Numbered from the stretch's first letter, positions 12,160 through 23,776 are shown. The stretch is 32,000 bases of DNA from Deltaproteobacteria bacterium (GCA_043747815.1 JAYTOL010000262.1:1-32000), one strand, 5' to 3'. A program made the numbers and translations. The notes: generated by a model from the sequence alone, not told the origin.

Positions 12160-13494
12160 CTACGGCTGCGCTGGCGGCAATGCGGCCCAGCGCAACGACT
12201 CGCCGTCACGGCTCGAGATCTTCTGCGTTTTCCCGCTCTTCAATGACTTGACGTACAAGCCCTGCTCTTTGCCGCGCGTCGAGAAGAAGGCGATCAGCCG
12301 CCCGTCAGGGCTGCACGCCGGATACGAGTTCGAGCCTTCGCCTTGCGTCAGTCGCGCCGTGTTGCCACCCGTTTCGTTGGAGCGCACGAGGTCCTGCGCG
12401 TTGTTGCCCACGGCGACGGCGTAGATCAGGTAGACGCCGTCCTCCGTGTCGCAGAAGGTCGGCGCCGCTGCGGAGAAGCTCGCGGGCGACACGGCCTTGC
12501 CCTCCACGTACACGCGTTGCCCAATCTTCTGACCCCCGCCGCCGATCCAGGCCAGCTTGCCCGAGGGACTGAAGACGGGGTGTGTGGCCACCTCCGTGTT
12601 GGAGACTTGCTTCATGTTGGTGCCGTTGGCGTTGCCCACGTAGACCGAGCTACCGACGTCGGTCCCCACGGCCACGGCCAGCTTCTTGAAGTCACTGCTG
12701 AAGGCGGCGCTGTAGATGGAGGTCTTGAAGGGCAGCTGCACGCCCGCGCCGTCGAGCTGCACCAGGCGAAAGGGCGAATATTTACGGCTCTGCGAATAAA
12801 ACAGCGTGCCGCCCGCTCCCCACATCGGAGCGACGCTCGTATCCGTGCCCAGCGTCAGGGAGCGGATGTTATGCCCGTCCGCGTCGACAGTATAAATACT
12901 GGGGTTTTTGCCCGACTTCGCCGAGAACGTGAGGTGGCTGGAAAATCCGCCCTCGCGCCCCGTGATGGCACCAAGCAAGGCGTCGGTGATGCGGTGCGCG
13001 GTCGGGCGCACCTGGTCCGCCTTCACTATCAGCGTCTTTTCGTAGACCGGCTCCTTACCGTGGCTCAAAAAGTAGCAGACGCCGAAGATCTTCACGCTAT
13101 CGGGGCCCTGCTTCTGAGCGGCCACCTTGATGATGACCTCCGCCCCGAGCTTGCTCCAGGCCTTGATGTCGACCGGGTCGTTGAAGCCGTACAGGCCTTC
13201 GGGCGCCTTGGCGTCATCGAGCACCTTGAACATGCCGGTGAGCTCGAAATCACGCCGCACGACTCCGCGCACGATCACGTCTTCCAGATCGGGAGAGAGC
13301 GAGGGCAACACGGCCAGCGGCGTCACGTGTTCTTGCGAGTCGCCGGTGATGAGCAACTCGCCGAGCACGCTCTCGTCGGCGGGGGGCGCCGGCGTTTGCG
13401 CGCCGGCGCTGAAGCTGAGCAGCAGAGTACACACGCCATGGGCGAGGAGCGCCCACGCACGCGTTCGCTTCGGCGCCCTCGCTGTCGGAGTCAT
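12160..13494 (-). CDS. tolB: Tol-Pal system beta-propeller protein TolB
   Basis: Signal peptide followed by a TolB N-terminal domain. Repeated propeller-blade motifs are present (HPVFSPSGKLAW, YPACSPDGRLIAFFS). The start at 13494 gives an ATGA overlap with the upstream gene, and an ATG at 13500 is also possible. Confidence 0.9.
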   Translation of the reverse strand: MTPTARAPKRTRAWALLAHGVCTLLLSFSAGAQTPAPPADESVLGELLITGDSQEHVTPLAVLPSLSPDLEDVIVRGVVRRDFELTGMFKVLDDAKAPEGLYGFNDPVDIKAWSKLGAEVIIKVAAQKQGPDSVKIFGVCYFLSHGKEPVYEKTLIVKADQVRPTAHRITDALLGAITGREGGFSSHLTFSAKSGKNPSIYTVDADGHNIRSLTLGTDTSVAPMWGAGGTLFYSQSRKYSPFRLVQLDGAGVQLPFKTSIYSAAFSSDFKKLAVAVGTDVGSSVYVGNANGTNMKQVSNTEVATHPVFSPSGKLAWIGGGGQKIGQRVYVEGKAVSPASFSAAAPTFCDTEDGVYLIYAVAVGNNAQDLVRSNETGGNTARLTQGEGSNSYPACSPDGRLIAFFSTRGKEQGLYVKSLKSGKTQKISSRDGESLRWAALPPAQP

Positions 13495-14297
13495 TTGCAT
13501 TGGTCGTTCTTTCCCTGGAACGTGGGGTGAACCACGTCATCCAGTATGTCCGGGTAGTTGGGGGGCGGAGGCGGGACTTTCTGACCCACACGCGCGTCCA
13601 TCACCCGCCGCACTCGCGCGTCGAAGATGGCGTTTCCGCTCGAGATCATGTCGTAGCTCGACACCGACCCATCGGGCGCGAGCCGTGCGTTCACGCTGGC
13701 GCGGAGGTCCCGCAGGATGGCGCAGGGGACTTCCTCCGAGGGGGAAGCGAAGCCTTGTTTGAACCAGCCGATCAGCTTCATTCGGTACAGGTCGACGGCG
13801 CGTGCCTTGAGCGGATCCTTTTCCGTTCCTTCTTCGACACCGTCGGCAGCTCCCTCTTCGGGTACGTTCGGCTCGTCTTCTTCTTCTCTCTCGACCTCGA
13901 GCACGGGCCTGTCCACCTGCTCTGCCACTGGCGCCTGTGGATCGGCCGGCTTGTCTTCGGGCTTTGGCTTTTTTTCCTGCTTGTCGGGCAGGTTTTCTGC
14001 GGTCTTCGACGCGAGCGGCGTGGGCACGTCCTTCGGCTCGACGCGCTTGACCGGGACCGGCGGCTTCCATTTGTCTGGCAGCTTGTTGGGCCGGGGTTTG
14101 CCGCCCTTTTTTAGGAGTGGCAGGTCGAGCATCGGCTTGACAGCGATCGACATCTCACGGGGCGGCGGCTCCGGCCGCGGCATCGAGCCTACCGCGTTGT
14201 GGGCCAGGAGCATGAGCACGACGAGCACGCCCTGCACCAACGCCGCGAGCGAGGTGGCGGCCCACACCTGGCCACTCGAGAACGCCCGGGTCCTCAC
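13491..14297 (-). CDS. tolA: TolA-like / TonB-family energy transducer (N-terminal TM, Pro/Lys/Glu-rich linker, TonB_C-like C-terminus)
   Basis: N-terminal TM helix (LAALVQGVLVVLMLLAH) and a long linker rich in P, K and E. Its position between tolR and tolB fits TolA. The GTG start overlaps the tolR stop (GTGA). Confidence 0.75.
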   Translation of the reverse strand: MRTRAFSSGQVWAATSLAALVQGVLVVLMLLAHNAVGSMPRPEPPPREMSIAVKPMLDLPLLKKGGKPRPNKLPDKWKPPVPVKRVEPKDVPTPLASKTAENLPDKQEKKPKPEDKPADPQAPVAEQVDRPVLEVEREEEDEPNVPEEGAADGVEEGTEKDPLKARAVDLYRMKLIGWFKQGFASPSEEVPCAILRDLRASVNARLAPDGSVSSYDMISSGNAIFDARVRRVMDARVGQKVPPPPPNYPDILDDVVHPTFQGKNDQCK

Positions 14298-14746
14298 TGC
14301 GGCGTCTCGCTCTTGCCCTGTTCTCCTTCGTCCTCGTCCGCTCCTTCCGGCTCTACGAGCAAGTTGAGCGAGTCGACCCCGCTGCGCCGCGCGGCGGCCA
14401 CGACCTCCGCCACGTCGCCGTACTTGGCGTTCTTGTCGGCTCGGATATAGAGCTCGCGCTCCTGCTGGACTCGGGCGTTTTGGCTGAAGGCATCGAAGAC
14501 GCGGCCGGTCACCTCTTCATCGCCGAACATCACCTTGCCTTCGGCGGTGACGGTGACCAACAGCCGACCGTCTTTGACGGGCGTATTGGCGGCCTGCACG
14601 TTGGGCAGGTCTATCTTGAGGCCGGTGGTGAGGAGCGGCGCCGTGACCATGAAGACCACGAGCAACACCAGCATCACGTCCACCAGCGGCGTGACGTTGA
14701 TATCGCGAAATCCCCGTCTACCCGAGCGACCCGCTTGCGCCCCCAT
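14294..14746 (-). CDS. tolR: Biopolymer transport protein TolR/ExbD
   Basis: 150 aa with the ExbD/TolR signature INVTPLVDVMLVLLVVFMV followed by a periplasmic domain. Confidence 0.9.
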   Translation of the reverse strand: MGAQAGRSGRRGFRDINVTPLVDVMLVLLVVFMVTAPLLTTGLKIDLPNVQAANTPVKDGRLLVTVTAEGKVMFGDEEVTGRVFDAFSQNARVQQERELYIRADKNAKYGDVAEVVAAARRSGVDSLNLLVEPEGADEDEGEQGKSETPQ

Positions 14747-14748
14747 GC

Positions 14749-15489
14749 CTAACCTCCGTAGCGGGGCTGTTGCGAAGGGCGCTGCGGGGCAGGATTTACG
14801 GGTGCGAGGCTGCTGCGCCGCTCGGCGGCGTCAGAGGCCAAGATCTCCACCCAGGTTTCGCTAGAGGCTTCTACCGTGGCCATCAAGTCGGTGATGCGCT
14901 GATCGATGTAGTTGTAACCGATGGTGGCTGGAATGGCAGCGACCAAGCCCACTGCCGTGGCGATCAACGCCTCACCGATCGCGGGGGCCACTACGGGCAA
15001 CGAGGCGCTGCCTTCGACCCCGATCCGCAAGAACGCATCCATGATGCCCCAGACGGTGCCGAACAGACCGATGAACGGCGCCGATGACGCGATGCTCGAC
15101 AGCGTCGGCATCAGCACTCCGGCGCGCTGCTGCTCGCTCACGATGGCGCGCTTGGCCACGCTCGCCAAGAACTCGGCGGTCAAGTTCGAGCGCGGCCGCT
15201 TCGCCATCTCCACGACGATGCGCCCGCCGGGGGCGCCTTTGTGCTGGATGCCCAGCGCGACCAAGGCGGAGGCTTCCGCCACCTCCGAAGCGTCGCGCTC
15301 GAAGCGATCCTGCGCCGCTTGCAGCCGGCGCAGTTGCATCGACTTCAAAAACCAGATCAGCCACACCGCGAACGAGGCGACGATGAGCAAGGACAGAACG
15401 ACCAGCACGACTCCCGACGCCTGGCGCACGAGCGACAACGGGTCGAGAGCGGGCGCTCCAGCGGGCGTGGGGGGAGCGAGTGCGGACAT
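14749..15489 (-). CDS. tolQ: MotA/TolQ/ExbB proton-channel protein TolQ
   Basis: 246 aa with three TM helices. Conserved segments are APFIGLFGTVWGIMDAF and EALIATAVGLVAAIPA. The stop lies 2 nt before the tolR start. Confidence 0.9.
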   Translation of the reverse strand: MSALAPPTPAGAPALDPLSLVRQASGVVLVVLSLLIVASFAVWLIWFLKSMQLRRLQAAQDRFERDASEVAEASALVALGIQHKGAPGGRIVVEMAKRPRSNLTAEFLASVAKRAIVSEQQRAGVLMPTLSSIASSAPFIGLFGTVWGIMDAFLRIGVEGSASLPVVAPAIGEALIATAVGLVAAIPATIGYNYIDQRITDLMATVEASSETWVEILASDAAERRSSLAPVNPAPQRPSQQPRYGG

Positions 15490-15606
15490 CTAACTTCTTA
15501 CCAATCGGCGCTCGTCGTTCACCTGCGACTGAGCGCCGCAGGTGAACACTGGGTAAACACGGCGCAAAAACACAGCTTTGCTTACGAGTGGGGCACGCCG
15601 GTGGCG

Positions 15607-16149
15607 TTAGTCTGCCAGGATGACGTCCACGCGCCGGTCTTCCGACCAGCCCGATTCGTCCGTGCCGCTCGAGTCCATCTCGCCGCGCGACGTCGTCTCT
15701 GCCTGGCGATCGGGCAAGCCCTGGGTCGCCAGGTACGACCTGACGTTGTCGGCGCGCTTACCGCCGAGGACCATGTTGTACTCCGCTTCACCGCGAGGAT
15801 CGGCGTGGCCTACCAGGCGCATGGTGCGGCCGCTGAGCTTACCCGTCGTAAAGCACTGAACGAGCTTGTTCAGCACGGGCTGGTCACCCTTTTGAACGCG
15901 AGCCGAGTCGTACGAGAACTTCGCTTCGGCATCGGTAATGCCGCAGGCGAGGGCGATCTCGTCGGAGACGTTGATCGTGCTCTGGCGCGGGTCGTCACCC
16001 GGTTTCTCCGGAGGCGGAGGCGGAGGCGGCTCCGGCGGCGGCGGCGCCTCTACCAGGGGCGTCGGAGCCACCGGCGGTGGTTTTGGATCGGACCCACACG
16101 CCAGAGCGGCCAATGCCGCCAGCACGTAGAAGCTACGCTGAACTGCCAT
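15607..16149 (-). CDS. pal: Peptidoglycan-associated lipoprotein (Pal, OmpA_C-like domain)
   Basis: I prefer the ATG at 16149, which has AGGAGG 9 nt upstream. It has the lipobox LAALAC|G, a Pro-rich linker and an OmpA-like domain (LVGHADPRGEAEYNMVLGGKRADNV ... RRVDVIL). Confidence 0.85.
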   Translation of the reverse strand: MAVQRSFYVLAALAALACGSDPKPPPVAPTPLVEAPPPPEPPPPPPPEKPGDDPRQSTINVSDEIALACGITDAEAKFSYDSARVQKGDQPVLNKLVQCFTTGKLSGRTMRLVGHADPRGEAEYNMVLGGKRADNVRSYLATQGLPDRQAETTSRGEMDSSGTDESGWSEDRRVDVILAD

Positions 16150-16610
16150 CTCCAGAATCCTCCTGAACACTCTCAATTAGAACAGTGACGTCAAAAAGCA
16201 CAATCGCGTCCCGCCGTTGCATACGCGTTTCGCGTTCCGCCGAGGCGAGCGCGCGGCCATGCCCGGTGGACCTTCTCCAGCGCCGTTACCTGCAGAAGCG
16301 CGAGGGGAATCACGAGCTTCCAGCCTGCGAACGACCTGGCTCGCGAGTTTATAGTACCAAAGGCCCAAGGCCGGCAAGCACACGACAATCTATCGCACGG
16401 CGACTCGGAACCGCTGCGTTTTCTCCCTCGCCGCGCCTGTCGCGAGCTGACACAGAGGTCGGATTCGGCGCTGGCGGCAGGGGAAAGGCCTCCCTTGCTG
16501 AGAGGCCGCGGCCAGAGTCGGGTTCGATGGCGTGGGCCGCAGTCGCGAAGACGACCGCGCCCAAGGCGCCGAAAGTGCCCAGGAGATGAGCGCAGAGATG
16601 AGCCACCAGG

Positions 16611-16637
16611 CAAAATAGCCTGCGGGAAGCAGCCTAC
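16611..16637 (-). terminator. Intrinsic-terminator-like hairpin downstream of the Cys-rich gene
   Basis: The minus-strand RNA would read GUAGGCUGCUUCCCGCAGGCUAUUUUG. That is a 7-bp stem with one C-C mismatch, followed by AUUUUG. It lies 33 nt after the stop at 16670. Confidence 0.4.
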
Positions 16638-16669
16638 TGGAATAGGCGCTTAGACAAGCGATGCCACCA

Positions 16670-17113
16670 TCACGGGCGGAGCTGCTCGAGGAGCCTCCGG
16701 CTCATTTCATAGTAGGTCGAGCGGTCGTAGGGCTGGTTGAGGATGTAGTAGTCCTTGTGGCTCAGGCCCACGCAACCGAAGCAGTAGTTGCACTGGGACA
16801 TGCCCGCACAGCGCGTCAGGTACGAGCAGCCGATCGAGCTCTGCGTGTCGGTGCAGTGGTGGCAGGAGAGCAGCGCCCGCGACGCCTGGCAGTGCGATGA
16901 GTCCGTGCACTGCTCGCACTCCACGCAGTAGTGGCAGCGGAGCAGGTGCTGACAATGTCGGCAGAAGGTGCTTTGCGTGCAGCCGCTGCAGTGCTGGCAC
17001 TGGACGCAGCGGTCGTTTTCTTTCCCTGACTCGTGCGTGCGCAAGAGCTCTCGATACTGGACCTCGAACTCGTGTGCCGTCAGCACGGTGACCTCGCGAC
17101 ACGGCGCCGTCAC
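16670..17113 (-). CDS. Cys/His-rich protein with strict 3-residue Cys periodicity (putative metal-binding); family not recognised
   Basis: 147 aa with no signal peptide. It has 18 Cys at residues 36-114, all at positions divisible by 3 (CVQCQHCSGC...CRHC...CHYCVECEQC...CHHC...CNYCFGC). The start ATG overlaps the stop of the upstream gene (ATGA). Confidence 0.75.
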   Translation of the reverse strand: MTAPCREVTVLTAHEFEVQYRELLRTHESGKENDRCVQCQHCSGCTQSTFCRHCQHLLRCHYCVECEQCTDSSHCQASRALLSCHHCTDTQSSIGCSYLTRCAGMSQCNYCFGCVGLSHKDYYILNQPYDRSTYYEMSRRLLEQLRP

Positions 17114-17958
17114 GCGCCGTGATGCACCCGCATCGAGCGACGCAGTGCGCCCGCAGCGTCACGCGTGATCGGATCTTCCGCTGACTGCTCCAGGCGACGC
17201 AGGCGTTGATCCAAGACCGGGCGCTTGATGGGAGCTTCTTTCTGGAGCAGCTCCGCCATGACGAAGACGGCGTCGCGAGCCCGGTGCTCGTTCTCGTGCT
17301 CGAGCAGCTGGATCTGCACCTCTTGCCGCCTCGGAGCCACGAACTTGCCATCCCAAAGATCGTCCGCCGCCCGTGAGATGGCGCCGCGACCTTGGCTGCG
17401 GACCAAACGATCGAGCAGCTGTTGCTCGCGGTTGCCGGCTGGCGTGAGCACGCTGTCCGTCAGCTTGACGATCCGCACCGCGCGGCGCCGCACGCCCTCC
17501 GGGCGAGGTGTTTCGGACGCACCCGCCTCGGCAGCGCCTTCAGAAAAGCCATTGCTCGAGAGGCCACCATTGCCGTCGGGGTCAGCGTCGCTCGCGCGGG
17601 CACGGCTACCCTCCTCCGAGAGCTCAGCGCCGCTCACCCTGGCCAGGCTGCTGCCAAAGCCATTGGTCACGGCGTGCCCGTTGCTCTTGCCTTCGCTTTG
17701 CCCGTTTTGAGGCGAGCCCGCGGTAAAAGAGGCCGCGTCTCGCGGAGGAGCGCCAAAATGAGCTGGCCGCGCCGATGCCAGGGCGCCGTGCTTGGGCTGC
17801 GCGGAAGCCACCACGGAGTGGAAACCGTTCTTCAGCAAAGGAGAATCCGGACGCCGAGCGACGATGAGCACGGGCTCGGCCGCCGCCTTGTTGCGCGGGT
17901 TCTTCGACTTGCGGCGTTGGCGGCGCCTGCTGCTGGTTTTCTCTCGTTGTCCTTCCAT
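17110..17958 (-). CDS. Hypothetical protein: basic N-terminus, long low-complexity region, helical C-terminal roughly 110 aa
   Basis: I prefer the ATG at 17958 (MEGQREKTSSRRRQRRKSK...), which has GGAGGA 8 nt upstream. The track start at 18204 adds 82 residues with no RBS. It is coupled to the Cys-rich gene. Confidence 0.6.
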   Translation of the reverse strand: MEGQREKTSSRRRQRRKSKNPRNKAAAEPVLIVARRPDSPLLKNGFHSVVASAQPKHGALASARPAHFGAPPRDAASFTAGSPQNGQSEGKSNGHAVTNGFGSSLARVSGAELSEEGSRARASDADPDGNGGLSSNGFSEGAAEAGASETPRPEGVRRRAVRIVKLTDSVLTPAGNREQQLLDRLVRSQGRGAISRAADDLWDGKFVAPRRQEVQIQLLEHENEHRARDAVFVMAELLQKEAPIKRPVLDQRLRRLEQSAEDPITRDAAGALRRSMRVHHGA

Positions 17959-18678
17959 GATCATTTCCTCCGACGTCATGCGCCGAATCACTTTCGTTTT
18001 GGCGGCCCTGCTGGGAACCGCGACGTTGCTGCTTTGGGCCGCCGCTCTTTGCGAGCGGCGCCCCAGGTGAATCTGATGTGCCCATGTGATGTGCGACAGC
18101 GTGGCCCCGTACCCGAATGGGCCACTCTGCTGAGCGATCGCGTAATATGTAACTGGCCGCCCGTGCGCTGCCGTCGCAGGGGCTGACTCAACCGGACCAC
18201 ACATTTCTCAGCCGCATGTGTTTAGAGCGGCTCTACATAGAAATTCTGTTGGGATTGCCGTGCAGCACTTTTGCGAGTTGGCTGCGGCGGGGCGCGCTGA
18301 CGGCCGTGGACCTGCCTTGCTGCAAGACGGGGGCCCGCCAGCACCCGTGGGGCTAGACCCCGGGGTACGATTAGAGCGATGGGCGGCAAAACAGCCCCTG
18401 TCTTTGGCGGCCAGCTGCCTTCGAAGAGCATGCTGGCCCCGAGCAAATGTCCTGGCGTCGGAACGGCTGCAACGGCAAACCTCGAAGCTGCAGGGGGTCG
18501 TGAATGGAAGCGCCACGACTATTCCGAGAAGCGGCGCGGAGCCATCGCGGGCCCACCGCCGTCCAGAGCAAGCGGGCGAGTGCCGCGCACACCCAGGGCG
18601 CAGCTAGGTCCGCGCCGACCATGTCTGCGCAGCACTGACCCGCGTTGCAGTTGAGCCACACCGCGCCCGCGGCCCGTG

Positions 18679-18723
18679 GCCACATTGCCCCTCGCCACAT
18701 TGCCCCTGGCTACATTGCTCATC
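18679..18723. repeat. 3 x 15-nt tandem repeat (GCCACATTGCCCCTC / GCCACATTGCCCCTG / GCTACATTGCTCATC)
   Basis: Direct reading. Copies 1 and 2 differ at 1 nt and copy 3 is degenerate. Confidence 0.9.
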
Positions 18724-18749
18724 ACAGGGCTCTCGACGATACCGTTGGC

Positions 18750-18809
18750 GGCAACAGATTTGCTGGCGACAGGGCGGCTGGCGACAGGGCGGCAGGCGAC
18801 AGGGATATG
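18750..18809. repeat. 4 x 15-nt tandem repeat (GGCAACAGATTTGCT / GGCGACAGGGCGGCT / GGCGACAGGGCGGCA / GGCGACAGGGATATG)
   Basis: Direct reading. The two central copies differ at 1 nt. Confidence 0.9.
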
Positions 18810-19057
18810 CCGCTCATGTCACGCTGCTCACGATTACGTCGCTCATCAATCTCTTGCTCGCTGCCGGCTCGTGTCACTCGTTTAAGCCCGCCCTACCGAA
18901 AGTCAACTGCCGGTCGGCCACGCCGTCCGCCCGCGACGTGACGCGCACGTTGCCGAGAACCCGAAACCTGTCCGGGCGATCGCGGCCAAGATCGCGCTGG
19001 GAGAAAGGGGCTGCTTCACCCTGAGCTCGCCGTAGTGCTGGCCTCTGTCGCTGTGTG

Positions 19058-19098
19058 TTTCCGACGCTGTGCATTTCCGACGCTGTGCATTTCCGACG
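19058..19098. repeat. 2.6 x 16-nt tandem repeat (TTTCCGACGCTGTGCA, two perfect copies plus TTTCCGACG)
   Basis: Direct reading. The preceding GTCGCTGTGTG (19047-19057) resembles the unit tail. Confidence 0.9.
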
Positions 19099-19219
19099 TT
19101 CCGGACCTGTGAATTACCTGCGCTGGGTTCCGAAGGCGGCTTTCTGCAACCGGCTTCCTGCAGCGATGAGCTCCGCAGCCCTCGAACGATCTGGGTCGAG
19201 CCATCACTCAGCGACCTAT

Positions 19220-19294
19220 GATCCAACGCTGTTCCGATCCCAATCCTGCGATCCAACACTCTGACCCAACCGCGGTCCTCACTCAACCTGCTCC
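19220..19294. repeat. Array of five imperfect GAYCCAAC-type motifs at 13-18 nt spacing
   Basis: GATCCAACGCTGTTCC / GATCCCAATCCTGC / GATCCAACACTCT / GACCCAACCGCGGTCCTC / ACTCAACCTGCTCC. Confidence 0.7.
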
Positions 19295-19464
19295 GAACGG
19301 CCTTACGTTGAAACCACGGCTTCGCACGCACCGCCGCCGACGACTTGGTTTGTGCCGCGAGCCATTCCGCTGATCGCCACATCCTGCCCTCGAGCGACCC
19401 CGGAGCGGCTGAAGCAGCTCGCGCGGACGTTGCCGTTGCAGCACTGAGCCTTCAACTCCCGATT

Positions 19465-19488
19465 CGGATCATGATGCGGATCATTTTG
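19465..19488. repeat. 2 x 12-nt tandem repeat (CGGATCATGATG / CGGATCATTTTG)
   Basis: Direct reading. Confidence 0.8.
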
Positions 19489-19646
19489 ATACGAGTGACC
19501 GCCGGCGTTCGGCGTTAGAGGCAAATGGTTAGGGCGTTCTGTAGCCGAATGCACACCGAGCCCATGCAGGGGCAGCCACACAGAGTCTCCGGCGCTTGCT
19601 GCGCCTAAGGCAGTTGTGGAGCAGTTCACCGCCTGCACCGACGTTG

Positions 19647-19694
19647 CTTTCAACGGGTTCGCCTTTCAACCGGTTCTACGTGCAACGGGGTATA
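19647..19694. repeat. 3 x 16-nt tandem repeat (CTTTCAACGGGTTCGC / CTTTCAACCGGTTCTA / CGTGCAACGGGGTATA)
   Basis: Direct reading. The third copy is degenerate. Confidence 0.75.
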
Positions 19695-19735
19695 CTTGCG
19701 ACGACGTGCCGGGAGATGTGCCCGCTCCGCGGTAC

Positions 19736-19765
19736 CTCTCAAACCAACATCTCTCAAACCACCCC
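19736..19765. repeat. 2 x 15-nt tandem repeat (CTCTCAAACCAACAT / CTCTCAAACCACCCC)
   Basis: Direct reading. Confidence 0.85.
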
Positions 19766-20571
19766 GGTGATGAACCGAGGCACTGCGCAGCGCTCTTGAA
19801 CAAGACGGCCTTGAACTAAACAGGTTCGTATTCGACGGACGCCCCGCCACGACTCATCGTCCTGACCTATCAGGAGCGTCCTAGTACCTGGAGACGTAAT
19901 AGCTGGCGACTGGAAACCGAGCGCCCGAGGTAGGCCGGACTAGTAGTAGCCGGGGTAAGCAACCTCGAGATCGCCACCGCTCATTAACCTGAGATGGCCC
20001 AGGGGCATAGCGCAAAAATCTGAGCGCGCCCAGCCCTTACAGTAGATAGCACACCGGTTTCGGGGATGCGGAATAAAAATCTGAAGGCTTTGGCTTTTTG
20101 CTCTGCGCAAGCAGCGTGACCTCGGGCTCGTTCACGCTGGTTCTCGACGAACCGTGTCGGAGAAACTTTTTGGAACGTCGTTCGGCGGCTTCAGACACGT
20201 GTGCTCCCGGAGTGTTCGTAGCAGCATGATCGTACTGTCTCGGATCGCTCGAGAATTTTCACGCGCGCAATGGCTTTGCTCCTGGGATTGAGCGCGCGTT
20301 TGCCCGTTGGTGGGTGGGGGCGGAAGCGTGAGCGCTGACGTCCGTTCGCCGTCGCGACGCGATGGCATGCGCCGAGATTTGTGGGGGCGGCGGGTGCGAT
20401 CTCCGAATGGGGTCGCCTCCTCGATTGTACAGAAGTGCTGAGCACGTCAATGAGAGGCCTCTCGCCTCAGCGGCTGGGGCCCGGGTGAACCTGGTACGAA
20501 CCGAGGACACCGCAGCAGGTGGAGTGAGCTTTGGGCTGCGAAAGACCAGCGCTCCGCCCCGCTCTGGGAAC

Positions 20572-20601
20572 GAGTCGAGGCGCCGGGAGTCGAGGCGCCG
20601 C
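20572..20601. repeat. 2 x 15-nt tandem repeat (GAGTCGAGGCGCCGG / GAGTCGAGGCGCCGC)
   Basis: Direct reading, with 14 of 15 identical. Confidence 0.9.
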
Positions 20602-20731
20602 CCGCCGTAGAAGCTGCCGTGGCCTTCCGGGGCACGCTTGCCTTCCCGAGCCGCTCGGGCGCGACACGCGGTTTGGGCCAGCCCCTGCCGTCAGGTCAAT
20701 GCCTCCGGAATTTTGCAGGCCGCGGCCACTT

Positions 20732-20746
20732 TGGCAGGCGGCTTGC
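20732..20746 (+). promoter_or_regulatory. Sigma54-type -24/-12 promoter-like element (TGGCAG-N5-TTGC) upstream of ilvE
   Basis: It matches the TGGCAC-N5-TTGC consensus at the GG and GC dinucleotides with correct spacing. It lies about 90 nt upstream of the ilvE ATG. It is a single-motif match only. Confidence 0.25.
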
Positions 20747-20837
20747 GTGACCGTTGGCCTGCGAAGAGTAAAGTAGAGCGGCGCACGGCAGGAACAAACG
20801 CCTCCCTCGAGAGAGCGCGACAGGTTGGAGACGCAGC

Positions 20838-21773
20838 ATGGCAGAATATGGCTCGCGCATCTGGTTGGACGGAAACATAGTCGACCGCGAAACGGCCGGG
20901 CATGTCCCGTTGCTCACCCATACGCTGCACTATGGCGTCGGGGCGTTCGAGGGTATCCGCGCCTACCGCCGATCGGGCGGAGAGACGATGATTTTTCGGC
21001 TCGCGGATCACGTGCGGCGGCTGTTCGACTCTTGCCGCCTGGTGATGATCGAGCCCACGGTCACAGCGGAGCAGGTCTGCCAAGGTTGTGTGGACGTGCT
21101 GCGTCACAATCAGCTCGCGGCCGGGTATCTGCGCCCGCTCGTCATCCTCGGTGAGGGTGCCATGGGCTTATTTCCACAAGGTAACCCGGTCCACACCTAT
21201 ATCGCCGCCTGGGCCTGGGGTGCCTACTTGGGGCAAGACGCGCTGGAGAAGGGCATCGCCTGCAAGGTCTCGTCTTATGCGCGGCCGCATCTCAATGTAG
21301 GCTTTTCTCGCGCCAAGCTGACCGGTCAATACATCGTCTCCGTGATGGCCAAGCGAGAGGTAAAGCTCGCGGGTTATGATGAAGCCATCTTGCTCGATCT
21401 GAATGGCATGGTGGCGGAAGGTTCAGGAGAGAACATCTTCATCGTAAAAGGAGGGCGGCTGATCACGCCGCCGCTCGGCTCCTCCATCCTCGCTGGCATC
21501 ACGCGTGACACCGTGATCACCTTGGCGCGTGAAGAGGGCATTCTCGTGGTGGAACAGGGCTTCCCGCGGGACGACCTGCTGCTCGCCGATGAAGCCTTCC
21601 TCACCGGTACGGCCGCGGAGATCACGCCCGTGCGAGAGGTGGACGATCGGAAGATTGGCGACGGCGGCGTGGGGCCCGTGACGCGGCTGCTGCAGGAGCG
21701 CTACTTCGCGCTGGTGCGTGGAGCGCGTCAAGATCACCCCGAATGGCTGACCCTGGTGAGCGCTGGGGTTTGA
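20838..21773 (+). CDS. ilvE: Branched-chain amino acid aminotransferase (class IV PLP enzyme)
   Basis: 311 aa with conserved segments HYGVGAFEGIRAY, AEGSGENIFIVKGG and ILAGITRD. GGAG lies upstream of the ATG. Confidence 0.92.
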   Translation: MAEYGSRIWLDGNIVDRETAGHVPLLTHTLHYGVGAFEGIRAYRRSGGETMIFRLADHVRRLFDSCRLVMIEPTVTAEQVCQGCVDVLRHNQLAAGYLRPLVILGEGAMGLFPQGNPVHTYIAAWAWGAYLGQDALEKGIACKVSSYARPHLNVGFSRAKLTGQYIVSVMAKREVKLAGYDEAILLDLNGMVAEGSGENIFIVKGGRLITPPLGSSILAGITRDTVITLAREEGILVVEQGFPRDDLLLADEAFLTGTAAEITPVREVDDRKIGDGGVGPVTRLLQERYFALVRGARQDHPEWLTLVSAGV

Positions 21774-22432
21774 CGCCGAGCGCCACATCGCTGCGCCGCG
21801 CGGGCTTTTGGCCGATGTGCGTCGGGGCCTGGTTTTTGGCCTGCGCGTCCTCGAGCGCAACGGCACCCCGAGCACCCCGATCCGCCACACCCGCTCCGGC
21901 GGGCCCACGCGAGAGCGGCCTGTCCGCAGGGTTTCGCAGCATCGAGGCGCTGGGGCAAGGTTTGGAGATCGACTTGCCGGACGCGAGCGGCTGGCGGCGC
22001 GACGCTCGCGAGACGCAGAGCTGGGTCGCCCTGCATCGGGCTACCCAGTCGCGCTTGATCGCGCGCGCCTGGCAACACGACGCGGTCGCCCGGATCGCAG
22101 ACTGTGAACGGCAAGCGCGCCTGTGGCGGAGCGATCTGCCCGAGCTGGACTCTTCGCAGCTCGTCGAGGCGCGCGAGTTGACTCTGGCAGGCGTCTACTC
22201 CGGGCAGATCCGCGTTGGCGTCGCCGCCAGCGGCGCCGATGGGATGCGAGGCGACGTGCTGGCGTTCGGAGGCTACGGGCGCGACTGCTTGATGCTGGCG
22301 TTTACGACGCAGGCGGCGGGGCCCGGAGCCGCGCGCGTCGTGGCTGAACGCTTGAGCGTGTTCTCCGAGCTCGTGTTCGAACGCGCCCGCCGCTTGAATA
22401 TCGGCGCACGCGTCGTCGTGCCACGGCTCTGA
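21770..22432 (+). CDS. Hypothetical lipoprotein
   Basis: It has the lipobox WFLAC|ASSS. The start is uncertain. A TTG at 21770 overlaps the ilvE stop and gives a basic n-region (SLRRAGFWP). An ATG at 21815 is the alternative. I recognise no domain. Confidence 0.55.
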   Translation: MTPSATSLRRAGFWPMCVGAWFLACASSSATAPRAPRSATPAPAGPRESGLSAGFRSIEALGQGLEIDLPDASGWRRDARETQSWVALHRATQSRLIARAWQHDAVARIADCERQARLWRSDLPELDSSQLVEARELTLAGVYSGQIRVGVAASGADGMRGDVLAFGGYGRDCLMLAFTTQAAGPGAARVVAERLSVFSELVFERARRLNIGARVVVPRL

Positions 22433-22486
22433 ACGGCCGAGCTTGGGGCCCAGCCGTTTCGCGGCCGTGCGGCGCCACAGCTCGGC

Positions 22487-23776
22487 TCAGGTGTAGCCGA
22501 GCGTCAGCTGTTTCAGCTTCTCTCGGTTGCGCTTGGACTGCGCGCCGACCGCCACCACGTTCAGGCCTGATGCCGAAAAGAGCAGCCGCGCGGCCTCCAT
22601 CACCTCGTCCCGGGTGACCTGGGCGAGCTGGTCGCGCCGCTCGGCGGGGTGCTGCTGCGTGCCCGCCAGCTCCGACATCGCGAACAGGCTAGCGACCTCC
22701 TCCGGGTCGTCGAGCATCATCGAGAGCTGCCAACGGTGGCGTTGCTTGGCCTTGTCGAGCTCGGCCAGCGAGGGACCTTCGTCCCGCAGCCGCTTGACCA
22801 CGGCGAAGAGCTGCTCCAGCACCTCGGCAGCGCGCTCGTTGGCGCTGTCTGCCGAAAGATCGACCATGCCCACGTCTTCGTAGGCCTCGTAACCCGCGGC
22901 CACGTCGTAACACAGGCCGCGGCGGTCACAGATTTGCTCATACAGCCGAGTCGAGAGGCCATCGTCGAGCACCCTGACGAGCAGCTGAGTGGCGGGCTCT
23001 CTCGGGTCGAGGAAGCTCGGCGCGCGAAAGCCGACGCGCAGACACGTCTGACTTGCCGCGTGCGCCACGAACCGGAACGCCGGTACCGTTTGCGGGCTCG
23101 GAGCCTCCACCTCGAGCCGCCGACCCTGCGCCAGGCCGCCAAACAAGCGCTCCAGCTCGACCAGGATGGCCTCCGGCTCGAAGGGGCCCGCGGCCACGAT
23201 GACCGTGCTCTTGCCCACATAAAATGCGTCGTGGTGCCGGCGCAGCCGCGGCGAATCGAAATCCCGCACCTGGTCGGGCGAGCCGGTGATGGGCAGCCCG
23301 AGGGGGTGACCGGGAAACGCCACGCTGCCGAGCAGATCGTCGGCGTCGATCAAGTTACCGCCCTCGTCCAGCGTCTCGAGGATCTCCTCGTGCACGATGC
23401 CCCGCTCGATCTCGATGCCGCTCATGATCGGAGCTTGATACACCTCGCTCACGAGCGGCAGCACGGCGCCGAAGCGCTCGGGGGGCATGGCGATTTGCAT
23501 CGAGCCAAAGTCCTTCGCGGTGGCCGCCTGCAGCGTGCCTCCGAGCGTCTCGAACGCGAGCGCCTGGTCGTGGGCGCTCGGGAAGCGCGGTGTGCCGCGG
23601 TAGAGCATGTGCTCGAGGAAGTGGCTGATGCCGTTCTCCCCCGGGCTCTCGAAGCGAGAGCCGATGCGGATCTGCGCTTCGAGCACCGCGCGGTGCACAT
23701 GTGGCATCGGGATGGCCAGCAAGCGCAAGCCGTTGGCGAGCACGGTACGAATGGGCGTGAGTTCAGTTAGCTCCAA
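22487..23776 (-). CDS. M16 family (pitrilysin/insulinase-like) zinc peptidase
   Basis: 429 aa with the inverted zinc motif HxxEH (HFLEH) near the N-terminus and the two-domain M16 length. The start is TTG, with GGGAG about 10 nt upstream. Confidence 0.88.
   Translation of the reverse strand: MELTELTPIRTVLANGLRLLAIPMPHVHRAVLEAQIRIGSRFESPGENGISHFLEHMLYRGTPRFPSAHDQALAFETLGGTLQAATAKDFGSMQIAMPPERFGAVLPLVSEVYQAPIMSGIEIERGIVHEEILETLDEGGNLIDADDLLGSVAFPGHPLGLPITGSPDQVRDFDSPRLRRHHDAFYVGKSTVIVAAGPFEPEAILVELERLFGGLAQGRRLEVEAPSPQTVPAFRFVAHAASQTCLRVGFRAPSFLDPREPATQLLVRVLDDGLSTRLYEQICDRRGLCYDVAAGYEAYEDVGMVDLSADSANERAAEVLEQLFAVVKRLRDEGPSLAELDKAKQRHRWQLSMMLDDPEEVASLFAMSELAGTQQHPAERRDQLAQVTRDEVMEAARLLFSASGLNVVAVGAQSKRNREKLKQLTLGYT

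Follow-up and report, generated by a model that had tools for sequence, protein, structure and literature searches.

The 32-kb stretch of DNA analysed here (the window) comes from a myxobacterium of about 67% GC, whose nearest named records are metagenome-assembled genomes of Polyangiaceae/Myxococcales, and it carries a gene-free spacer of 2.86 kb between a leftward Tol-Pal-like operon and the rightward gene ilvE, which encodes a branched-chain amino-acid aminotransferase. Within this spacer a single element of about 100 nt, hereafter the core, is the only part under purifying selection; about 95% of the spacer is unconstrained and evolves at about the synonymous rate or faster. The core is probably a gene-control site or a small RNA that has not been catalogued. 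It would be a conserved non-coding regulatory element embedded in an unusually long and persistently retained neutral spacer. An earlier reading of the same DNA, made from the window's sequence and no other data (the sequence-only reading), had marked positions 18205–20837 as an island poor in open reading frames (ORFs) and had offered long structured RNAs, a decayed gene or a protein-binding array as explanations. Its suspicion of something functional and non-coding was right for about 4% of the region, and the features that it highlighted are mostly mutational noise. The evidence does not support a decayed gene, a structured RNA of the whole length or an array made of the repeats, and what survives is the element of about 100 nt, whose role may be that of protein-bound DNA or of a short RNA.

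The core and the spacer that holds it

Relatives of the locus were found by protein search, contig look-ups and a metagenome scan, and ten long-spacer lineages, with ilvE products 76–87% identical in amino acid sequence, were compared (L-numbers such as L001 denote the fetched comparison loci). All ten carry the core (nhmmer, E = 1e-23 to 1e-27), namely the window, L083, L084/85, L088, L090, L169/170, L171–174, L175, L177 and L179/180, and no significant nhmmer match to it occurs in the other ~160 fetched loci, L001–L004 and L178 included. The core is single-copy in all sequence compared, namely the fetched loci, and lies 269–768 nt upstream of the ilvE ATG, always on the same strand relative to ilvE. 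Its conservation far exceeds that of the adjacent enzyme gene, and it is part of no RNA family so far catalogued. The GC minimum of the full 32 kb falls at the core: GC is 0.629 in the island compared with 0.671 elsewhere, the stretch 19861–20100 falls to 0.558, which bears out the low GC counted by hand in the sequence-only reading, and the eight lowest-GC windows of 240 nt all begin at 19861–20061.

The alignment of the ten core sequences has 44 invariant columns. In its near-invariant part, conserved blocks alternate with variable stretches of fixed length (Table 1); next come a variable stretch that differs in length between lineages and a run of five thymines (T5), just past which conservation stops sharply in every pairwise profile. 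The A5 and T5 tracts start 20–22 bp apart across lineages, and the layout of A5, variable segment and T5 is kept in position. On the right side, a multiple alignment of the segment between the core and ilvE is conserved only at the core and at the start of ilvE. On the left side, one subgroup remains alignable beyond the core, and the identity profile of L084 and L090 stays at 70–100% from −210 to +87 around the TAGATAGCACA anchor. On the plus strand, at exactly 39 nt upstream of the invariant ATAGCACA, the ATAGCNCA motif recurs in degenerate form; this second copy reads ATAGCGCA in the window (20004–20011), is nearly perfect in L171 and L175 (TAGATAGCCCA), and is eroded in L169 and L177. It might serve as another binding site or stem from an old duplication.

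The island around the core is genuinely non-coding. The largest ORF within 18205–20837 has 159 codons' worth of residues (159 aa), and each of the six frames contains 17–25 stop codons, among them TAGTAGTAG at 19941–19949, in agreement with the sequence-only reading on both counts. Codon-phase GC is flat throughout 17900–20820, and GC at the first, second and third codon positions (GC1/2/3) of the island's ORFs is 0.57–0.72, 0.56–0.63 and 0.63–0.68, compared with 0.68, 0.45–0.53 and 0.75–0.82 in real genes. A six-frame Pfam search of 17950–20860 at E ≤ 1 returned no match and, in the island, no transposase or integrase domain, and ARAGORN found no tRNA or tmRNA. A scan against Rfam 15, a check proposed in the sequence-only reading, gave nothing at the gathering threshold in the 32-kb window and nothing at E ≤ 10 in 17900–21100; the loci of eight relatives have no Rfam match either. 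Comparison of the island with 80 genome loci by blastn and tblastx gave noise only and nothing credible, collections of plasmids, phages and viral contigs contain no match to the spacer, and no dispersed repeat appears when the island is compared with itself or with the rest of the window. Frameshift sequencing errors are unlikely, because Logan contigs of run SRR23617292 match window positions 16128–22790 except for two bases inside a 16-nt repeat (19049–19098). These contigs do not remove frameshifts or restore one long ORF, which the sequence-only reading had named as a resequencing result contrary to its view; the run may be the window's own source, so that the confirmation is not fully independent.

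The gene order TolB, TonB_2, ExbB, OmpA-like, two unknowns, spacer, ilvE, unknown, M16 peptidase and SurA-like is conserved, and the ten Polyangiaceae-like lineages keep a gene-free spacer of 1.7–2.9 kb at the same syntenic position (2567 nt in L084, 2046 nt in L177, 1880 nt in L171, 1835 nt in L175, 1724 nt in L088 and ~2700 nt in L179); in one further contig the gap is ~3.3 kb. Since the long spacer is present in every close lineage with sufficient flanking sequence, it is a feature of the clade and not a recent insertion in this genome. In L001–L004 (ilvE 65–67% identical), the stretch from the final aligned residue of the left gene to ilvE measures only ~450–670 nt, and in L178 (75% identity) the gap is 888 nt; these short gaps of distant relatives have no element in common with the core. 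The comparison shows that the spacer arose once, in the ancestor of the Polyangiaceae-like clade, and has been retained since at 1.7–2.9 kb. The clade that keeps it is one of soil myxobacteria. An intact coding sequence at this position, which the sequence-only reading suggested looking for by synteny, is absent from the ten close lineages and from seven distant relatives (L001–L004, L091, L092 and L178). Gene callers place ORFs of 200–300 aa in the spacers of some relatives; these have no Pfam domain, and the calls examined in L179 have flat GC1/2/3 and no coding composition. The ten relatives' spacers have no conserved ORF in common, small ORFs outside the core included, and tblastx between the spacers of different lineages finds similarity at the core only, and there in all frames.

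Turnover of the remaining spacer

Outside the core, the lineages could not be aligned with each other by blastn, tblastx, global or multiple alignment. For L171 and L175, in which ilvE is 90% identical at the DNA level, the spacers are homologous over their full length and 67–73% identical, with many indels, compared with 76% identity at the fourfold-degenerate sites of ilvE. Likewise, the right-hand part of the spacer is 57% identical between L084 and L090, compared with 70% at fourfold sites. Change at or above the synonymous rate excludes both a gene and a long structured RNA across the whole spacer, and hence the structured RNA over 2.6 kb that the sequence-only reading had entertained.

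The spacer is enriched in tandem micro-duplications (Table 1). With Tandem Repeats Finder (TRF) at a score of at least 40, five arrays fall within the 2.86 kb of spacer (1.75/kb) and four in the remaining 29 kb (0.14/kb); at a score of at least 24, the spacer has six arrays, compared with 1.0 ± 1.1 in Markov-1 simulations. Two or three weaker duplications are visible by eye at ~19640–19680 and 19737–19766, and together with the TRF arrays they make the earlier count of at least eight a fair one. Over all lineages, the spacers hold 1.1–2.9 arrays/kb with periods of 11–19 nt (mostly 13–16), compared with 0.14–0.66/kb in the flanks, and some of the relatives' arrays reach 6–11 copies. The repeat units differ at each site and in each lineage, with no unit common to two lineages; the clustering of periods at 13–16 nt hints at a specific duplication mechanism. 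Two Logan contigs, L081 and L082, both end inside the 16-nt × 3 repeat at 19049–19098, from which it appears that such tandem repeats fragment assemblies of the spacer. One Logan contig shows a variant copy of this repeat, with TG in place of CA at 19072–19073.

Tandem duplication is a live polymorphism at the locus. Near-identical strains, in which the ilvE protein is identical, differ by 0–3 substitutions over 1.3–1.9 kb of spacer, and the sole internal indels between them are one 14-nt and one 10-nt tandem duplication. The 14-nt duplication (L171 4330–4357, compared with L173) directly follows the T-run of the core, and the 10-nt duplication (L174, compared with L171) lies further left. The content of the spacer turns over by tandem duplications and deletions of 10–19 nt, a process that accounts for the micro-duplications, for stops in every frame and for the lack of motifs. 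Because duplications are the sole indels between strains, they are footprints of the dominant mutational process and not a binding array; the proposed protein-binding array of tandem repeats does not hold, with units specific to each lineage and arrays that vary even between near-identical strains. An array of the iteron type was rejected as well, each array having its own unit and none being conserved between relatives.

Candidate functions of the core

RNAalifold assigns the core alignment −0.9 kcal/mol for the plus strand and −8.0 kcal/mol for the minus strand; one pair covaries, and the subgroup alignment has a covariation term of +0.69. Native hairpins of the core are no stabler than chimeras of different lineages and show no covariation, the C-rich block finds a long-range pairing partner no better than in shuffles, and the 225-nt core region folds worse than shuffles (z = +0.76 and +1.22 for the two strands). 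These results lend a riboswitch or structured leader no support, neither covariation-supported structure nor excess folding energy having been found. Between the A-run and the T-run, no more than about half of the lineages form a hairpin (a good one in L084, L169, L171 and L175), and this inconsistency makes a canonical terminator at the T-run doubtful. A switch of GC skew at the core, considered as a sign of divergent transcription, is seen in the window and was set aside as inconsistent across lineages.

Promoter and operator motifs were sought in the same region. A sigma-70 scan of both strands of 17900–21100 returned no site, and the best candidate by eye, TGTGC-TATCTA on the minus strand, resembles an extended −10 element and has neither the T at −7 nor a TTGACA-like −35. 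The core contains a sigma-54 look-alike, TAGCAC-N5-TTTC, from which both critical dinucleotides (GG and GC) are missing. A further sigma-54-like match closer to ilvE (Table 1) recurs upstream of ilvE in none of the relatives and is probably due to chance. Compared by eye with motifs for Lrp, IHF, CRP, the DnaA box, dif/Xer, parS, ops and the Myxococcus C-box, the core gave no convincing fit, and a literature search returned nothing relevant on small RNAs or intergenic elements of Sorangium.

The distance between the core and the ilvE ATG is 641, 654, 657/660 and 661 nt in four deep lineages, across intervening sequence (window 20101–20837 and its equivalents in L169, L171, L175, L177 and L179) that is saturated with substitutions and cannot be aligned. 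In the right-hand parts of L171 and L175, indels of 129 and 132 nt, including a 122-nt tandem array, cancel to a difference of 3 nt. The corresponding distances in L090 and L084 are 693 or 768 nt, and leftward of the core the spacer measures 1070–2018 nt. The recurring distance of ~655 nt may be a coincidence, or it may reflect a constraint on length rather than on sequence; that it is apparently kept suggests a cis relation of the core to ilvE. We regard it as rather doubtful that the spacer drifts in sequence yet is held in length, anchored on an uncatalogued, ultraconserved element of ~100 bp specific to the Polyangiaceae-like clade. If this were true, the length constraint would imply an unusual mode of bacterial gene control, either distance-dependent (by DNA looping or wrapping, or through a leader of critical length) or by a new class of regulatory RNA, acting on the branched-chain amino-acid metabolism of myxobacteria.

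The reading that we tentatively favour is that the core acts mainly as protein-bound control DNA, a promoter/operator hub between the divergent operons. The absence of an RNA-structure signal, the pattern of blocks and spacers, and the link to ilvE suggested by the distance argue for it. Such a hub would occupy the easiest-melting point of the spacer and would control, through long untranslated leaders, how ilvE and perhaps also the divergent operon are transcribed. Several points weigh on the other side. The promoter/operator role is deduced from the conservation pattern, AT-richness and position only; neither strand offers a recognisable sigma-70 site, and the sigma-54-like pattern of the core is without GG and GC. 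Sixty near-invariant bases are long for a transcription-factor site. The sharp right edge at the T-run also fits the 3′ end of a small RNA, and a hairpin with a U-run on the minus strand, ~118–140 nt to the left in L084, L090 and L083, fits a short leftward RNA. Moreover, the distance to ilvE is not constant, being 269 nt in L088, 395 nt in L083, 732 nt in the window and 768 nt in L084, and all relatives are metagenome contigs, from ten lineages only.

The main rival, which we consider somewhat unlikely, is that the core encodes a small trans-acting RNA and that the rest of the spacer is filler. Such an RNA could be of plus sense, ending at the T-run (20095–20099), or of minus sense, running from the core to an end ~120–140 nt to the left. 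An intergenic block of ~100 nt conserved family-wide would suit either version, as would long invariant, single-stranded stretches that resemble the seeds of small RNAs, and for the plus sense conservation ends sharply after an A-rich tract, a variable segment and T5, the variable segment folding into a good hairpin in the four lineages named above. In addition, C-to-U changes in a small hairpin, GCAUC...GUGUGC, are accommodated as G-U pairs, and one of its C-G pairs has changed to U-A. For the minus sense, the GC-rich hairpin of L084, L090 and L083 is followed by U4–5 (the window has U3 only); however, this candidate terminator is limited to one subgroup, and at the T-run a terminator hairpin is missing from about half of the lineages. 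Covariation, folding better than shuffled sequence, a conserved promoter and an Rfam match in the window or the eight relatives are all lacking, and an independent small-RNA gene leaves the near-constant distance to ilvE unaccounted for. That distance, roughly constant in several lineages, and an orientation that is always that of ilvE would agree with the core being the 5′ part of a cis-acting ilvE leader (riboswitch-like, an attenuator, or a site of processive antitermination), with the variable segment and T-run as expression platform. The order of conserved block, variable hairpin-like segment and U-run is the usual layout of an aptamer and its terminator, and antitermination by NusG paralogues is known to involve short conserved elements within long leaders. 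We nevertheless judge a leader unlikely: there is no conserved secondary structure or covariation, the element stands 269–768 nt from the start codon with unconserved sequence between, the terminator is missing in about half of the lineages, and ilvE plus one gene make a short operon for antitermination control.

Explanations that involve proteins or mobility fare worse. A length of 2–3 kb would fit one or two genes, and the domainless ORFs of 200–300 aa placed by gene callers in some relatives might suggest that the island is the wreck of one or more genes gained or lost in the clade ancestor, the core being a leftover. This is very unlikely, since the six-frame Pfam search is empty, tblastx similarity between lineages goes no further than the core, where it extends to all frames, the spacer ORFs of the window and of L179 have no coding GC1/2/3 composition, no gene stands here in close or distant relatives, and the core does not evolve like coding sequence; the decayed gene of the sequence-only reading accordingly finds no backing, there being no domain, no codon composition and no conserved ORF. 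For a micro-protein encoded on the minus strand of the core (...FFFRIPETGVLSNVRAGRA...), no frame but minus frame 1 stays open across the core in the nine lineages examined (all except L179), and several differences are synonymous in this frame (CGC/CGT, AGG/CGG, TTC/TTT). However, the variable sites of the core are distributed as 7 of 21, 10 of 20 and 10 of 21 over the three codon positions and are not concentrated at third positions, unlike those of ilvE in the same taxa (0.39, 0.23 and 0.93 varying). In L088 a stop interrupts the frame three codons upstream of the conserved part, in L090 the reading frame shifts just downstream of it, and neither a start nor a ribosome-binding site is conserved; the invariant codons CTA, TCT, AAT, GTA and AGG are presumably the rarest in a 67% GC genome. 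We therefore hold a micro-protein to be extremely improbable. The same applies to the view that the island is a degenerate mobile element, or a hot-spot of integration whose attachment site is the core. A 16-nt inverted repeat, 88% complementary (18176–18191/20673–20688), nearly brackets the island as first defined, and the length of the spacer left of the core is variable; but about five such repeats are expected per 3 kb of the same composition by our own estimate, which places this one at chance level, and it is not common to relatives. The spacer has no transposase, integrase or tRNA and no match in plasmids, phages or viral contigs, the core is single-copy, and the L171 and L175 spacers are homologous by descent along their full length. 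The sequence-only reading, which saw no obvious mobile insertion, was thus correct about the missing transposase, integrase and tRNA and overlooked one inverted repeat, of chance level, that does flank the island.

The spacer as a whole resembles no defined family, and the core looks like either the multi-site regulatory region of an amino-acid biosynthesis promoter or a small-RNA gene. The nucleoprotein complexes formed by Lrp and IHF at the ilv promoters of Enterobacteria are regulatory hubs in divergent intergenic regions. Like these, the core is an AT-rich conserved block of protein size between divergent units, one of them an ilv gene, with conserved blocks separated by variable stretches of fixed length, A/T tracts and no signal of RNA structure. 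Unlike them, it has no consensus for Lrp, IHF, sigma-70 or sigma-54 by inspection and scans, it lies 269–768 nt from the ilvE ATG and 1.1–2.0 kb from the other operon, and the spacer is ~10 times the usual length. With terminator-ended genes for trans-acting small RNAs, the core shares a size of ~100–220 nt, an intergenic position, family-level conservation, invariant stretches that look single-stranded, and an A-rich tract, variable segment and U-run at one end, whereas about half of the lineages are without the terminator hairpin, and covariation, a recognisable promoter and an Rfam family are absent. Elements of the ops/JUMPStart type, which are recognised by NusG paralogues in long 5′ leaders, are likewise short, orientation-dependent, conserved in sequence and unstructured, within a long unconserved region upstream of an operon; the core differs in having no sequence similarity to ops (GGCGGTAG), and no NusG paralogue was seen among the window genes scanned. 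The mycobacterial MIRU-VNTR loci exemplify intergenic minisatellites (variable-number tandem repeats) of GC-rich bacteria. The spacer resembles them in its intergenic tandem repeats, which vary by whole units between strains and form arrays of up to 11 copies in relatives, and departs from them in that its units of 10–19 nt are different at each site and lineage, with no dispersed repeat family, and look like footprints left by mutation in unconstrained DNA and not like a defined element.

Useless DNA is thought to disappear quickly from bacterial genomes. Here, 2–3 kb of apparently neutral DNA persists at one locus across lineages in which ilvE differs by 13–24% in protein, and the spacer gives a clean view of neutral turnover via 10–19-nt tandem duplications, which can be seen even among strains. 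Branched-chain keto acids supplied by IlvE enter the iso-fatty-acid and signalling chemistry on which myxobacteria depend, and the core offers a small, concrete experimental target in organisms whose gene regulation is almost unexplored.

Flanking genes and other features

The island is the intergenic region of two divergent units, a leftward operon on one side and the unit headed by ilvE on the other. The left ORF as listed (17110–18204, 364 aa) is over-extended: conservation and coding composition begin only at residue ~76, codons 1–75 have flat GC1/2/3 (0.63/0.61/0.68, compared with 0.71/0.53/0.75 for 17110–17979), and the homologues have 253–290 aa. Conservation of the left gene with L084 and L088 at the DNA level is confined to 17110–17498 and 17792–18006 and ends at 18006. 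The gene probably starts at 17979, and the gap is therefore 17980–20837, so that the extent of 18205–20837 given in the sequence-only reading is gene-free as described and smaller than the true gap. The protein, which had been called Cys-rich, has one Cys, and its middle part is of low complexity.

Table 1. Coordinates of the spacer, the core, its blocks, flanking genes and repeats (window positions unless a locus is named)
Feature	Position	Strand or orientation	Remarks
Gene-free spacer between divergent operons	17980–20837	no strand	2,858 nt; no ORF >159 aa, no codon periodicity
First gene of leftward Tol-Pal-like operon, revised start	17110–17979	(-)	289 aa, no Pfam domain
ilvE, branched-chain amino-acid aminotransferase, first rightward gene	20838–21773	(+)	Pfam Aminotran_4, E = 4.6e-55; syntenic in all relatives
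Conserved non-coding core	20005–20100	fixed relative to ilvE	nhmmer profile; pairwise search extent 19997–20104
Leftward extension of core	19880–20004		alignable only in subgroup window/L083/L084/L090; includes TAGTAGTAG micro-duplication
Near-invariant part of core	20022–20079		conserved blocks with fixed-length variable stretches between
Core block GAGCGCGCCCAGCCC	20022–20036		
Variable, six bases	20037–20042		
Core block TAGATAGCACACC	20043–20055		
Variable, two bases	20056–20057		
Core block TTT	20058–20060		
Variable, four bases	20061–20064		
Core block GATGCG	20065–20070		
Variable, four bases	20071–20074		
Core block AAAAA	20075–20079		
Variable stretch	20080–20094		13–17 nt across lineages, 15 in window
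T5 run	20095–20099		
Three hairpins of the sequence-only reading	20103–20153		present in sequence; no conservation past T-run
Sigma-54-like −24/−12 match TGGCAGGCGGCTTGCG (TGGCAG-N5-TTGC)	20732–20747	(+)	9/11, GG and GC present; starts 106 nt upstream of ilvE ATG
Tandem micro-duplication GCCACATTGCCCCTC	18661–18718		15 nt × 2.7; TRF
Tandem micro-duplication GCTGGCGACAGGGCG	18762–18804		15 nt × 2.9; TRF and repeat-family search (family D1)
Tandem micro-duplication CGCTGTGCATTTCCGA	19049–19098		16 nt × 3.1; TRF; short-read contigs break here
Tandem micro-duplication	19461–19484		12 nt × 2; TRF
Tandem micro-duplication GAGTCGAGGCGCCGG	20572–20600		15 nt × 1.9; TRF
Minisatellite-like array	L175 3396–3549		14 nt × 11
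Minisatellite-like array	L175 4732–4861		15 nt × 8.7
Minisatellite-like array	L177 2334–2426		15 nt × 6.2

The leftward operon (12160–17979, minus strand) comprises two unknown genes, an OmpA-like gene, ExbB/TolQ, a short ORF at the position of ExbD, a TonB_2-type gene and TolB. The two genes that head it have no Pfam domain and are syntenic in the fetched Polyangiaceae-like relatives. At the ExbD position, the relatives' contigs have a PF02472 ExbD call. In the rightward unit (plus strand), ilvE is followed by an unknown gene of 229 aa and then by an M16 peptidase, a SurA-like gene, a helicase and a MutS-like gene. The 229-aa gene overlaps the 3′ end of ilvE by 31 nt as listed (21743–21773), has no Pfam domain, and is syntenic in relatives with ~30–37% identity.

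The palindromes at 20435–20445 and 20452–20463 and the three hairpins to the right of the T-run are present in the sequence as the sequence-only reading described them, and neither set is conserved in any relative. Facing the Tol-Pal-like operon, candidate sigma-54-like matches (9–10/11, with GG and GC), all on the minus strand, occur at 18321 in the window, 2496 in L084, 3471 in L171 and 166 in L169, at distances that differ among the four lineages.

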